DNA of 64,000 nt. It comes from Promethearchaeati archaeon SRVP18_Atabeyarchaeia-1. GTDB taxonomy: Archaea; Asgardarchaeota; Atabeyarchaeia; Atabeyarchaeales; Atabeyarchaeaceae. The position numbers were made by a program, and so were the translations under genes. Under the pieces are notes generated by a model. It did not search any database and was not told the origin of the DNA. It saw nothing but the letters and a program-made list of their open reading frames with translations. Shown here piece by piece: positions 12,514-26,930 of this stretch (positions within the stretch are counted from its first letter, which is position 1; every line of letters starts with the position of its first letter). The stretch lies in contig CP147779.1 of NCBI GenBank assembly GCA_037308085.1, positions 2,688,001 to 2,752,000 of the forward strand, given 5' to 3'.

Positions 12514-12652
12514 CTACATCTGGAAGCCTGTCTTGCCAGCACCCACATCGTCAGGGCAGTCTCAAGCTCCTCATGCTCCTCAGCATAATCGCTGACCTTG
12601 ATACCCCCCATCACAGCATCAATCGCCTACCTAAAAGCACGAGGACCAGCAG
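12514..12652 (-). repeat. RLP 3'-end copy R1 (internal stop and frameshift)
   Basis: Minus strand reads AGPRAFR*AIDAVMGGIKVSDYAEEHEELETALTMW/../GKTGFQM*, matching the RLP C-terminus at 24295-24458. Confidence 0.93.
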
Positions 12653-12902
12653 TAGAACGCTCGGGAGTAGGCCACACCTTGCACTGCATGATTATGGTTC
12701 GACGGCTCACCTTACGCAGTGTGGTTTACTTCTATTGAGACTCGTGTAACCACTTTTAGTTGCAGTGATGCAAGGAGAATGATTCGAAATATGAACCAGT
12801 GTGCCCCTCGTTGAGCTATCTCTGGATTTGCTTAACAAAAAAGAGGGATGGAAGCTCTGCAGGAAGGCCGATGCCACAACCGGGATGACGTCATGGTCTG
12901 TG

Positions 12903-13550
12903 CTATTTGCGCCTCATGTACATTAGGGCTGCTACGATCACAAGAAGGGCTGCTGCTCCCCCAGCAACCAATACAAGCGTCAGCGGTATGCCGCCCGACT
13001 CGATATAATATGAGTTCAGCGTGTAGTTTTCCGTTAATCCTGCTCCATTGTTGTATCTCCAAACGAGGAGGACGCCGGTGAGTTTGTCTATGTAAGCTAC
13101 GACGTTGATGTCCATGATTGTTCCATTGATGTAGTTGGCTGTCCAGTAGCGCCCAGCGATATGATAGTTGGAGACCGTTGAGTTGAATTTCCAGCCTCCT
13201 GAACTAGGATACGGTGCCTCTCCTGCCGTGATGTTCGCTGCTACGAATCGCCAAATGCCATATTGGTACACATTCACATCGAAGGTGCCCGAGTGAGTAT
13301 TGTTCACGGAACCTCCCGGGTTGTACTCGGTCTTCTCTAGTGTGAGTACTGAGCCGCTGACTGCGGTGACGCGAACCCTAATTGCGTTGATAGCAAAGCC
13401 CGCCGCACTATAGGCGTAATCGTAGTAGGCATTTGTTCCCACAACTGCTCCCGGCTTAGTGTAGTCTGCTGCGCGTGTTGGGGCAAAGCTTGAGGAAACG
13501 ACCAATAGAATCGACAATGCCACCAGCGCGCAGGCTATTCCCTTTCTCAA
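12903..13550 (-). CDS. Secreted, C-terminally membrane-anchored hypothetical protein
   Basis: N-terminal signal peptide, N-x-S/T sequons, D..TG.L motif, C-terminal transmembrane helix followed by RRK. Confidence 0.8.
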   Translation of the reverse strand: MRKGIACALVALSILLVVSSSFAPTRAADYTKPGAVVGTNAYYDYAYSAAGFAINAIRVRVTAVSGSVLTLEKTEYNPGGSVNNTHSGTFDVNVYQYGIWRFVAANITAGEAPYPSSGGWKFNSTVSNYHIAGRYWTANYINGTIMDINVVAYIDKLTGVLLVWRYNNGAGLTENYTLNSYYIESGGIPLTLVLVAGGAAALLVIVAALMYMRRK

Positions 13551-13726
13551 GTGTTGTTACTCTCCATCTTCTTTCCCTATTCGCCCCTTATTGATTGATT
13601 GAGTATGTATCGTTTCAGTATTTTAAGTTTGCATCGCGTCAGCTACGGCCCTCGAGGCTTCTGGATCGCAGCTTAGGGTCGCTTGACGTTTTTCCCAGTC
13701 TCTTAAGCGCGCACGCTTACTAAGGC

Positions 13727-13762
13727 AAAAAGAAAAGTTGAGGAGAATCGAATTATTCTCCT
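13727..13762 (-). terminator. Hairpin plus oligo-T terminator downstream of RLP copy R2
   Basis: GGAGAAT-cgaatt-ATTCTCC inverted repeat, followed by a T-rich tract on the minus strand. Confidence 0.55.
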
Positions 13763-13771
13763 TCAGCGCTC

Positions 13772-13807
13772 TTACATCTGGAAGCCTATTTTACCAGTAC
13801 CATCTTC
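13772..13807 (-). repeat. RLP 3'-end copy R2 (short)
   Basis: ttacatctggaagcctattttaccagtacc = G-T-G-K-I-G-F-Q-M-TAA on the minus strand. Confidence 0.8.
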
Positions 13808-13887
13808 ACTCTGAAAAACGGAGCCGACGAGAACTCCACACCTTGAAGCAGCCAAAAACCAAATTAAAACTACTAAGATCTATTCTG

Positions 13888-24215: not shown

Positions 24216-24252
24216 TCTCGGGCTTCGGGGTAACCACACCAGTCATTTTAAT

Positions 24253-24285
24253 CCAAAAAAGAAGGAGGGATTCCGCAGATCTCCC
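24253..24285 (-). terminator. Native RLP terminator (hairpin plus T6)
   Basis: Minus strand GGGAGATC...AATCCCTCCTTC followed by TTTTTT; similar tracts follow most repeat copies. Confidence 0.55.
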
Positions 24286-24294
24286 AAATGCCCT

Positions 24295-25664
24295 TCACAT
24301 TTGGAAACCTGTTCTGCCGCCGCCCCACTTAGTGAGAGCAGTCTTCAGCTCCTCATGTTCCTCAGCGTAGTCACTGACCTTGATACCCTGCATCACCGCA
24401 TCAATCGCTTGCCTAAAGGCTCTTGCACCAGCAGCTGGACCGTCCGGGTGAGCGTGGACTACGGGTCCATCAATTAAAGATGGACTTTCCGCCTCCGGAC
24501 CCGATCATGATGTTGTTGCCGAGCATTTTCATGGTTTTCTCCACGTGGCCGGCAGTAATACCACCGCTTGGCATAGGCATCGTCGGCTTGATATGCTGCA
24601 AAGGAAACTGTAATCGCTTCGCCATCATCAAAAATTTGTCCTCAAGCAACGGAGCTTTGCCGTAGGGCGCCGGAACCAGGGCTATATCGGTCCCACATAT
24701 GCGCGGTAGCTTGGACATTATGAGAGACGGGGATACTCCCGTTATTGGACTATAGCTGATTTCGCCAGCCTCTTCAGCCGTGTGCGCCGGCTATGTCCAT
24801 ATGCCCCATTATTGGCAATGTGTTTGGTTCTTCTGCTACCATGCGTAGGGCGTCGTATCCGACTGCGAGGTAGTTGATGAGTAGGGCGTTTCCGCCTGCC
24901 TGTTTGACTTTGTCGGCGTTTTCGAGTAGTTTGTCTACTGGGCCGGTTATGTTGCAGCAGTAGAGTGTCTTTTCATCTTTTTCTTTGTTTGCTTTTTCTG
25001 CTTTTTCCATGTAGAGTGGGACGCGGTCTTCTATTTTGTTGTATGCTGGGTTGGCGATGATTTCGTCGTCTTTTATACAGTCAGTTCCGCCTACTGCGGC
25101 GCCGTAGAAGAGTTCTGCGCCTACTTCGGGCGTGTAACCCGTCTTGGGTTTTATCATATTATTCAGGAGTGGCCGTTTGGGTATGTCCATGAGGTCTCTT
25201 ATTCCTTGGAGTCCGTGTTTGGGTCCTTTGAATCCTTTGAGCCATTGTTTGGGGAACCATAGGTCCATGAGTTTGATTCTTCCGCCCATGCTGAGGTTGC
25301 CGATGACTGTGCTGAGTAGCATGGGGATTTCTGTGCCGAAGTTTTCCCATGGGAAGCCTACTGCGATGATGAAGTTGCGGTGGTCTACTTCCTTTGGGAC
25401 GGAGTAGACGTATTCGGGTGTTTCCCAGATGCCGAGTACTTTTGCTTGTCGCTTGATTTTGAGTTCTACTGTTTCGCCTGGGACTGGGGTCCAGGTGCCT
25501 GTGCTTTGTTCTAGGGCTGCCATTTCTGCTACGTCAGTTATTGGTAGTGCGGGGTTGAGTCCTGCGAAGTAGAATCCGATGACGTATTTGTCTGTGTCGA
25601 GGCCGTCGAAGAATCCTTGGGGTTGGGCTTCTATGGGTATTTCGTTTGGTTTTTCTTCAGACAA
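24295..25664 (-). CDS. RuBisCO-like protein (form IV), three exons: 25664-24782, 24759-24487, 24458-24295; 439 aa after splicing
   Basis: EQSTGTW, GNLS, IKPKTG, KDDE, PSGG, GGGIHAHPDGPAAGARAFRQAIDA; exon lengths 883+273+164 = 1320 nt in one frame. Confidence 0.9.
24459..24486 (-). other. Putative 28-nt BHB intron 2 in the RLP mRNA
   Basis: GCGG-AA^A-GUCCAUC-uuuaauu-GAUGGAC-CCGU-AG^U; removal restores GGG-I-HAHP. Confidence 0.82.
24760..24781 (-). other. Putative 22-nt BHB intron 1 in the RLP mRNA
   Basis: AUAGCCG-GCGC-AC^A-CGGCU-gaaga-GGCUG-GCGA-AA^U-CAGCUAU; removal restores AGA-L-SYSPITG. Confidence 0.78.
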
Positions 25665-25821
25665 TTTTCGGGTTGACCTCCTTTCGTTTCTTGGTTTTTG
25701 TTAGAATTGGTTGTTGGTTTTAGAGTCTTCCGCATCGATATAAACGTGATGGGGAGACTTCAATGACAGTCGATTCCCTTGTTTTCCGCAGGGGCATATG
25801 CTCTTTGGGGGCGTTGCTACA

Positions 25822-26280
25822 TCAATGGATCATTTGCTCCTTGATGGTGGTTGCGAGGATGGCGTCAAGGTTGTCTGGAGTCTTGCCTGCGTAGCCGATG
25901 GATGCAATGGGCTTGATCCTTGTTAGTGCCATGAGTGCTTCTATCCTTTTGATGATAAACTTGTATTTATCTGGGTCTGCTGAGTTTGCGAATGTGATGA
26001 GCTTCTTGCCGTTCAGGTCCATTTTGAAGAGCTTCTTTGTGTTCCTTCTGAGTAGCTTGGGTGCTCGGCATTCCTCGGCGCCGTGGCACTTCGTGCATGT
26101 GAGGCATGGTGCTCCGAGGGCGATTATGCTGTAGTCGCGTATGGATTGAGATTCCTTGAACTGCTTGTCTTGGAAGAGGGAGACATTCGTTCCGAGGTCT
26201 TCTAGACGGTTCCTGATCTTTTCTGCAAGGAGCTTCGTGTCACTGTTGTCCGTGTGATAAATGACTAGTGCTCTTGGCAT
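25822..26280 (-). CDS. Flavodoxin-like fold protein with a Cys-rich insert
   Basis: ALVIYHT..SDTK.LAE.I, Y.IIALGAP, L.GKK...F; CLTCTKCHGAEEC insert. Confidence 0.65.
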   Translation of the reverse strand: MPRALVIYHTDNSDTKLLAEKIRNRLEDLGTNVSLFQDKQFKESQSIRDYSIIALGAPCLTCTKCHGAEECRAPKLLRRNTKKLFKMDLNGKKLITFANSADPDKYKFIIKRIEALMALTRIKPIASIGYAGKTPDNLDAILATTIKEQMIH

Positions 26281-26582
26281 TTCTTTGGGCCCCTATGAGG
26301 TAAGTCTAGGTGGGGTTGGCTGTTCAACTATGGTGGTGAGCGCTTTAACTAGGTTTGTCAGTGCACTTTGAATAGCAGAAGCTCTGGTTTGTCATATGTC
26401 TTCCGACCCTCCTCTAGGCTTTCGATCTTGCGGTAGACGCCTACGGCAGCGGGTTTTTCGGTTATGCTGCATTTGTTAGAAAACTATTTTAGATAGATAG
26501 CAGAGGTATTTTAGATAAAAAGCAGAACTGATTTAGATAAAGGCAGAAACGTTTCAATTCATCGTAGGAGGATTGAGAAGTC

Positions 26583-26930
26583 TTGGTATTTGATTGGTAT
26601 CGTCGAAGGAAGCGAGCTTTCGGTAACAAGCGAAGCTCCCACTGGGGCGACGTGAGGAAGAAGTACCTGAAGACACACGGTACGTGCGCGGTGTGTGGCA
26701 CAAAGGATCATCTTGAGGTTCACCACATAGTTCCGTTTCACGTCGACCCGAGCAAGGAGCTGCAGCCGACCAACTTTGTAACGCTGTGCCAGTCGAAGAG
26801 TCACAATGACCACCTGATTTTCGGCCATCTGCTGGATTTTCACGCGATGAATACGAAAGTGGTCACCGACGCGAACACCTACCGAGGCGAACTTGCGAAG
26901 CGCAAGATTGTGAAGGGAGATTCAGGATAG
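26583..26930 (+). CDS. HNH endonuclease
   Basis: CAVCG....LEVHHIVP......N.VTLC....H...H. Confidence 0.85.
   Translation: MVFDWYRRRKRAFGNKRSSHWGDVRKKYLKTHGTCAVCGTKDHLEVHHIVPFHVDPSKELQPTNFVTLCQSKSHNDHLIFGHLLDFHAMNTKVVTDANTYRGELAKRKIVKGDSG

Follow-up and report, generated by a model that had tools for sequence, protein, structure and literature searches.

Displaced 3' ends of a RuBisCO-like protein gene separate cargo cassettes in an Atabeyarchaeia chromosome: a possible case of serial gene-end replacement

Downstream of rhs and cdiA polymorphic-toxin genes lie orphan C-terminal modules that lost their place to an incoming tip and its companion gene. The locus described here, located in a 64,000-nt stretch of the chromosome of Promethearchaeati archaeon SRVP18_Atabeyarchaeia-1 (the window; positions 2688001-2752000 of the source genome G000, a single contig of 2,808,651 bp), resembles them in carrying serial 5'-truncated gene ends downstream of a full gene. 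However, the rhs and cdiA tips are variable toxins with immunity genes, whereas here the ends are those of a conserved enzyme, a RuBisCO-like protein (RLP), and the cargo is unrelated. In the mitochondrial cob and atp6 genes of the fungus Endoconidiophora resinifera, C-terminal duplicates of the host gene are found beyond degenerate free-standing homing endonuclease open reading frames (ORFs) (PMC6279837). The likeness consists in the order of gene, endonuclease ORF(s) and partial C-terminal duplicate, with the insert bringing its own gene end and the host gene remaining intact. The archaeal locus differs in its chromosomal location, in having up to nine serial copies and cargo that is mostly not endonuclease, in the involvement of a protein with tandem helix-turn-helix (HTH) modules and a PD-(D/E)xK domain instead of a LAGLIDADG or GIY-YIG enzyme, and in the origin of the copies from alleles diverged at about the genus level.

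In the collaborative homing of cyanophage psbA, the free-standing endonuclease F-CphI is paired with an endonuclease-less group I intron that shields the recognition site (Zeng, Bonocora and Shub 2009, as described in PMC6083498). The likeness to our locus is that a free-standing gene of a junction-resolvase-related nuclease adjoins an intron-containing gene; the differences are that the introns of the archaeal gene are of 22-32 nt and of the bulge-helix-bulge (BHB) type, with a protective role that is only proposed, and that displaced gene ends and a cargo array are absent from the phage system. An earlier, sequence-only reading of the window had proposed that a cut at or near the second RLP intron is repaired from a donor allele and had named no described system combining these parts; the fungal duplicates (PMC6279837) and collaborative homing (PMC6083498) are precedents. 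Integron cassette arrays, including the integrase-less CALINs and archaeal integrons (PMC9668308), share with the window small, toxin-antitoxin-rich cassettes running in one direction, a repeated structured element and a content that varies between relatives. Here, in contrast to integrons, the repeat is the coding 3' end of a host gene under purifying selection followed by a simple hairpin, no IntI gene is located nearby, and the cargo lies in both orientations. Unlike in tandem integrative elements with attL and attR sites, there is no integrase belonging to each element and no identical core.

Results of our analysis suggest, with a probability that we put at about one half, that the array downstream of the RLP gene arose by serial replacement of the gene end, with a free-standing multi-HTH PD-(D/E)xK nuclease as the most likely driver. 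In its mechanistic part, the array would be a variant of the gene-end replacement associated with free-standing homing endonucleases. The RLP gene occupies positions 24295-25664 of the minus strand (exons 25664-24782, 24759-24487 and 24458-24295; stop codon 24297-24295; Pfam PF00016 and PF02788); its spliced product aligns end to end with homologs of 435-441 aa, the closest of which are from Asgard archaea. Nine displaced copies of its 3' end, R1 to R9, lie downstream between 12.5 and 24.2 kb, all in the orientation of the gene, and separate cargo cassettes. They are truncated solely at the 5' side, and each keeps its own stop codon at the homologous position (first bases, from R1 to R9, at 24176, 20876, 20240, 19046, 17928, 16077, 15042, 13774 and 12516). 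The native 3' untranslated region (24249-24294, minus strand), with its hairpin and T-run, is repeated after every displaced copy, as the alignments of all copies show. At the protein level the copies start at residues 4, 5, 8, 11, 13, 20, 25, 41 and 45 of the 53-residue exon 3.

The differences between the copies and the native end fall at codon positions 1, 2 and 3 in the numbers 91, 85 and 291, at about 676 sites each, and the third-position divergence is as high as that between native ends of different genera. This dominance of third-position differences indicates that each copy was a working gene end for most of its history; the displaced copies are former functional gene ends under purifying selection. 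Two expectations of the sequence-only reading are borne out by these data. The start points do vary, from exon-3 residue 4 to 45, and the postulate that each event brings one foreign gene end with its cargo and displaces the old end agrees both with the substitution pattern and with the orthology between R2 and a native end of another genome described below.

From the gene outwards, the array begins with R1 (24174-24215, minus strand), which retains the last ~13 codons and the stop codon. It is followed by a three-gene cassette (b; 20952-24060, minus strand) encoding, according to Pfam, an alpha/beta hydrolase (23314-24060), an MGH1-like glycoside hydrolase (22011-23324) and a NIPA-like transporter (20952-21887), and by R2 (20874-20978, minus strand). 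Cassette c (20238-20816, minus strand) comprises a 148-aa ORF (20370-20816) and copy R3 (20326-20238). Three cassettes, all on the plus strand, encode toxin-antitoxin pairs: cassette d (19335-20182), an MNT nucleotidyltransferase with a HepT (HEPN) partner (PF18765, PF01934); cassette e (18208-18913), a HEPN and MNT pair (PF05168, PF01909); and cassette g (15329-16023), an MNT and HepT pair. On the minus strand, copies R4 (19044-19175) and R5 (17926-18069) are followed by cassette f (16560-17567), a 335-aa ORF of no recognised family and with no similarity to the nuclease discussed below, and by R6 (16075-16200) and R7 (15040-15196). Further minus-strand features are cassette h (13888-14671), with Pfam matches to an ABM monooxygenase-like protein (14387-14671) and DUF1801 (13888-14271), R8 (13772-13813), which consists of the last ~9-13 codons, cassette i (12903-13550), a 215-aa ORF of no recognised family, and the most distal copy, R9 (12514-12665), which starts at exon-3 residue 4. 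Searches of Pfam and NCBIfam left the cassette ORFs of 335, 215 and 148 aa, as well as three ORFs of a second array behind atpB, without a match, and detected no integrase in any cassette of the window. The sequencing runs that match the window come from wetland and sediment habitats, and none of those listed for this stretch is recorded as an RNA run. In the wetland runs, the depth of contigs at window positions 13568-14601 and 15636-16152 is 2-4 times that of the neighbouring sequence, and contigs of 90-95% identity diverge there into unrelated sequence on both sides, which indicates that other genomic surroundings, too, harbour the DUF1801/ABM and HepT cassettes.

Comparison with relatives supplies the most direct view of how such an array changes. 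The RLP alleles compared are, by amino acid identity to that of the window, L001 (96%), L002 and L020 (92%), and G002 and L021 (89%); G002 is a closed genome of a sister genus in the same family, and a metagenome scan with RLP exon 1 as a query yielded two extra loci only. In G002 the RLP gene is at the syntenic place, and the 22 kb behind it contain at least nine displaced copies, with starts at residues 4-37 and mostly different cargo. In L001 there is one displaced copy, and this copy together with its cargo gene (L001 3565-4077) is the R3 cassette of the window (82% identity over 513 nt, with the same copy boundary). R2 and its flank to ~20773 are orthologous to the native RLP end of L001 and its flank, which implies that cassette b and a new gene end were inserted ahead of the former native end. 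Among a further 80 RLP loci, from other Asgard lineages and some bacteria, no RLP-end copies were found downstream (about 40 of these loci have the full 10 kb of downstream sequence). Two window genes outside the array (8881-9521 and 10942-11848) have homologs inside the G002 array, where an RLP-end copy directly follows the homolog of the former, and a LigB-like gene of the G002 array is inverted relative to the window.

These comparisons bear on the possibility that homology alone, with no dedicated enzyme, built the array: excised circles or foreign fragments with an RLP end would enter by a RadA-dependent single crossover or by homology-facilitated illegitimate recombination, and only events restoring the reading frame would survive selection. 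A contig from a wetland metagenome contains a hybrid R9/R7 copy and lacks the intervening 2553 nt, with the crossover ~130 nt upstream of the stop codon, and copy-to-copy recombination is therefore polymorphic in nature. Variable 5' starts with a constant 3' end would be expected if the frame must be restored, and the MNT/HepT cassette g recurs in the G002 array with 75% nucleotide identity between flanking copies of different length. However, copies that are 75-87% identical over 150 nt or less are poor substrates for homologous recombination, and homology alone leaves three things unexplained: why RLP and atpB have arrays when some 80 other RLP loci have none behind them, why the copies have a hard limit at exon-3 residue 4-5, and why a nuclease gene recurs at such sites. 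Plain homologous recombination is a serious rival all the same, although as the sole cause of the array we find it quite unlikely.

Another serious rival is site-specific integration in trans, in the manner of integrons or of integrative mobile elements exploiting Xer (IMEX). Circular cassettes without an integrase of their own would use a mimic of the RLP end as an attachment site and would be stacked in tandem by a chromosomal XerA-like tyrosine recombinase. The integron-like appearance of the array, with its small toxin-antitoxin-rich cassettes and a one-directional repeat carrying a hairpin, is what such a process would produce, and in two cassette pairs common to different genomes the identity drops right after the stop codon of the distal copy, a possible sign of a fixed crossover. 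RLP ends also enclose ectopic cassettes at 1.71 Mb, and tyrosine recombinases are encoded elsewhere in both genomes. In the source genome, however, matches to this family (PF00589) are at 1.55, 1.66, 2.02 and 2.59 Mb only; no integrase or tyrosine recombinase was found within ~100 kb of the window array, and no tyrosine recombinase near the G002 array. The copies have starts spread over residues 4-45 with no one boundary in common, and neither an exact core shared by all of them nor a conserved core with inverted arms was found. The absence of a single att core had been anticipated by the sequence-only reading. Purifying selection on the copies shows that they were real gene ends, so the crossover was not always at the stop codon, and the single deletion observed crossed well upstream of it. 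A crossover fixed at the stop codon is thus hard to reconcile with the selection signal and with that deletion. Taken together, integration in trans appears to us unlikely.

Orphan copies of the RLP 3' end, remote from every RLP gene, occur at three places in the source genome (1709944-1710056, 1711214-1711283 and 1800963-1801054). A DUF4760 gene located downstream of an ABC-2 transporter is flanked on its two sides by two of these orphan ends, which looks like the result of a cassette having moved to this place. By eye, the copy starts of RLP and atpB appear to have a GAG-YTN-AAG (E-L-K) motif in common, which may be due to chance.

The nuclease to which we attribute the most likely driving role was recognised in L001. 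There, a gene of 547 aa is convergent with the RLP gene, starts ~65 nt past the RLP stop codon and forms a clean 1955-nt indel relative to the window. In its product, about seven HTH modules in tandem are combined with a conserved C-terminal domain; the loci encoding this domain comprise 42 representatives. When a profile was built from 25 homologs of the domain, it matched T7 endonuclease I (E 4e-8), the catalytic residues Glu, Asp and Glu being aligned, and more weakly Bax1 and I-Bth0305I. The best fold match of the domain model (pLDDT 86) is the catalytic domain of the homing endonuclease I-Bth0305I (E 6e-4), followed by Bax1, PspGI and Vsr. On the basis of this model and profile, we regard the multi-HTH protein as a candidate homing-endonuclease-like nuclease with a PD-(D/E)xK domain. 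The 547-aa protein has no similarity to the ORFs of the window, and a word-index homolog search with the nuclease domain returned the query itself only.

Members of this family recur between a working gene end and its displaced duplicate, at the RLP gene of L001 and at the EF-2 gene and a 484-aa gene of the source genome. At EF-2 (source genome 103465-105735), a nuclease homolog is convergent with the gene, 150 nt from its stop codon, and beyond it lies a displaced EF-2 end (DAIGRIRMRCGLDPR vs. DIVGQIRKRRGLDPR; E 7e-4 at the protein level). This scar is significant at the protein level only, the nucleotide comparison being no better than with shuffled sequence. At 1.24 Mb, another homolog lies between the 484-aa gene and a remnant of the end of that gene (E 0.003). 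A homolog is also located inside the G002 RLP array. In the window, a decayed relic of the PD-(D/E)xK domain is predicted just distal to R9 (12234-12466, minus strand; hidden Markov model (HMM) E 0.002; hhalign probability 76%, E 2e-5 over 31 columns), and the homologous stretch of G002 is matched with an HMM E-value of 1e-8. The presence of a nuclease gene family at such gene ends makes the break-and-repair element of the sequence-only reading plausible, with an agent other than those that it had named.

According to the reading that we prefer, the region from 12.2 to 24.3 kb would be an accretion array in which the RLP 3' end was replaced serially, nine times or more. Each event would install a foreign functional end consisting of up to ~50 codons, the stop codon and the terminator hairpin; cargo in the form of toxin-antitoxin pairs, small enzymes or the three-gene block would arrive with this new end, and the previous end would stay downstream as a 5'-truncated copy. 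The nuclease gene would travel in such cassettes, and its product would cleave a naive allele close to the GGGIHAHPDG codons of its conserved 3' region. Such a cut point would explain why the copies never extend past one point. Repair would then copy the donor allele, with the gene body as the left homology arm and the donor's displaced end copy as the right arm, which would explain why cassettes stay bracketed by copies. Subsequently, copy-to-copy recombination would delete or reshuffle cassettes and the nuclease gene would decay. The micro-introns of the RLP gene would be dispensable for the whole process and at most shield the cut site.

Several observations weigh against this reading. An intact nuclease gene is absent from the window array, where there is the weak relic only, and a search of the atpB array region found no nuclease homolog. 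Three other copies or fragments of the gene, located at 0.99 Mb, 0.45 Mb and 33 kb of the source genome, have no flanking gene-end scar, and a metagenomic homolog beside an FGGY kinase gene (L108) has no displaced-end remnant; a search for direct repeats around L108 and the other nuclease loci found internal HTH repeats only. In the ExK motif of the family the canonical Lys is replaced by A, T or M, and the nuclease activity is a prediction. Most cassettes carry cargo unrelated to homing, and an array built by a trans-acting recombinase would look very similar. Finally, every step of the mechanism, including cleavage and transfer, is one that we infer.

The second array, located behind atpB, separates the phenomenon from the introns. 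In the source genome, atpB (605055-606734) is an uninterrupted ORF with four displaced 3'-end copies, and among its cargo are a restriction-modification pair of the DpnII type and the pair ParE/SocA; atpB of G002 also has displaced copies. Since an uninterrupted gene bears arrays in both genomes, arrays form without introns. At positions 602150-603727, a 525-aa ORF of no recognised family is antisense to atpB, 1.3 kb past its stop codon, a place that at the RLP and EF-2 loci is taken by the multi-HTH nuclease gene.

The two insertions in the RLP gene are, as judged from their predicted folding, micro-introns of the tRNA (BHB) type, 22 and 28 nt in length. Each has a stop codon within it and puts the codons that follow out of frame. 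When both are excised by the BHB rule that we applied, which requires a 4-bp central helix flanked by two bulges of 3 nt and cleavage behind the second base of the bulge, AGA|LSYSPITG and GGG|IHAHPDG are restored. The 22-nt insert at site A (codon 293; 24760-24781, minus strand) has a central helix of 3/4 pairs and an inner stem of 5 bp; the rule picks one of five possible cuts, namely the one giving AGALSYSPITG, and the insert is absent from L001, L002, L020, L021 and G002. The 28-nt insert at site D (codon 384, inside GGG|IHAHPDG; 24459-24486, minus strand) has a 4/4 helix and a 7-bp inner stem. Site D is also occupied by a 28-nt insert in G002 and L021, with compensatory changes in the stem (GUCCAUC/GAUGGAC vs. 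GCUCAUC/GAUGAGC), so that the stem covaries across three alleles. Inserts of 31 nt are present at site C (codon 379, after DIMI) in L001 and at site B (after SPIT) in L002 and L020. At all four sites the BHB-compatible cut (helix 3-4/4, inner stem 3-7 bp) is the cut that restores the conserved peptide, and every insert site in the alleles of the window's family lies within codons 286-384. Outside this family, 79 of the 80 RLP loci are uninterrupted.

In L021, an extra 30-nt insert with an in-frame TAA is present at ~1900-1950, near codon 286; its removal gives IMGQNMDIAG, and no BHB-compatible cut was found in it under the rule. The sole interrupted RLP gene among the 80 other loci is that of a Hermodarchaeota contig (L092), split at residue 327/328 by a 32-nt insert (2058-2091). 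Public gene calls P0001 (L001 160-1311, 383 aa) and P0002 (L002 4550-5587, 345 aa) end at the micro-introns, and the databases consequently hold truncated RLP proteins.

The sequence-only reading had made the introns central: an intron-related or HNH endonuclease would cut the site of intron 2, and the trimmed resident end would be rejoined without homology. Its observation that all copies start past intron 2 holds well beyond the window, as no intron or exon-2 sequence was found in the nine window copies, nine G002 copies, the one L001 copy and the three ectopic copies. No copy crosses the junction, the longest starting 9-14 nt below it; sites C and D lie in the most conserved motif, a typical homing target, and three of three array-bearing alleles have an intron at C or D. 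For R7, which had been read (as R3) as reaching position 24451, the last ~17 nt do match the native sequence at 12 of 17 positions, but the orthologous G002 copy lacks that stretch. The introns, however, are of 22-32 nt and encode nothing, and with sites C and D 15 nt apart, the probability that a copy boundary falls by chance as close as ~14 nt to an intron site is ~0.1. Nor are introns required, given the uninterrupted atpB with arrays in both genomes, the same phenomenon at the intron-free EF-2, and a displaced copy in L001, which has no intron at site D.

The HNH gene proposed as an agent is likewise not supported. The HNH-motif ORF (26583-26930, plus strand; 115 aa; PF01844) does lie at about the distance that had been reported, 919 nt upstream of the RLP start, and is a single-copy gene with 84% conservation. 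Its G002 ortholog, however, is 1.39 Mb from the RLP gene, even though G002 has an equivalent array, and the ORF is probably unrelated to the array. In view of all these data, intron homing by an intron-related or HNH endonuclease seems to us highly improbable. Just upstream of the HNH ORF there is an indel polymorphism: at window positions 26501-26551, 49 nt are replaced by GGAAACTGG in contigs from three wetland runs.

A different role for the introns may be considered. By analogy with collaborative homing, the micro-introns at codons 379 and 384 could be immunity devices that shield the GGGIHAHPDG DNA from the multi-HTH nuclease encoded downstream. This idea, which we consider tentative and unlikely, rests on the distance of 9-14 nt between the copy boundary and site D and on the occurrence of an intron at C or D in all three array-bearing alleles.

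The strand composition of the locus was likewise connected with the introns by the sequence-only reading, and here the claim holds in part. A block of extreme composition (24700-26500), with a keto skew between +0.23 and +0.32, covers RLP codons 1 to ~290 and an upstream flavodoxin-like gene; the 2.8-Mb genome has only 10 blocks of this kind. The switch is real and extreme and brackets intron 1 at codon 293, but intron 2 is ~270 nt further downstream, and the same flip is seen in the uninterrupted atpB and EF-2 genes. In RLP, the excess of A or C at third positions is 0.8-1.0 over codons 1-270 and zero or below over the last ~140 codons, with the flip at ~270-310. RLP, EF-2 and atpB are the only genes of the genome in which 80-100% of third positions are A or C along the greater part of the gene, and all three flip to G/T at 420-510 nt before the stop codon. 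A flip at this distance is consistent with repeated overwriting of the gene ends; overwritten ends, selection at the mRNA level or a strand-specific mutational process could each account for it. Two other causes were rejected. A replication origin or terminus does not agree with the cumulative skew extremes of the genome, located at 0.21 and 1.37 Mb, away from the RLP locus, or with a skew that is confined to coding-strand third codon positions. As for simple deamination, whether after resection or in R-loops, reasoning indicates that the sign would be the opposite.

If the proposed reading is correct, the locus would exemplify a testable route by which Asgard chromosomes could acquire accessory and addiction genes at core-gene ends with no integrase involved, and the multi-HTH proteins may represent a new family of archaeal homing endonucleases with a tandem-HTH and PD-(D/E)xK architecture. 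For annotators, genes with such micro-introns are a source of error, as they are called as truncated fragments. The positions of tRNA-type introns vary within one protein gene among alleles that are 89-96% identical, and intron gain and loss, with a possible link to selfish nucleases, are thereby open to experiment. The shielding idea, if true, would connect intron gain in protein genes of Asgard archaea with selfish nucleases and would explain why all displaced copies stop at the intron junction.

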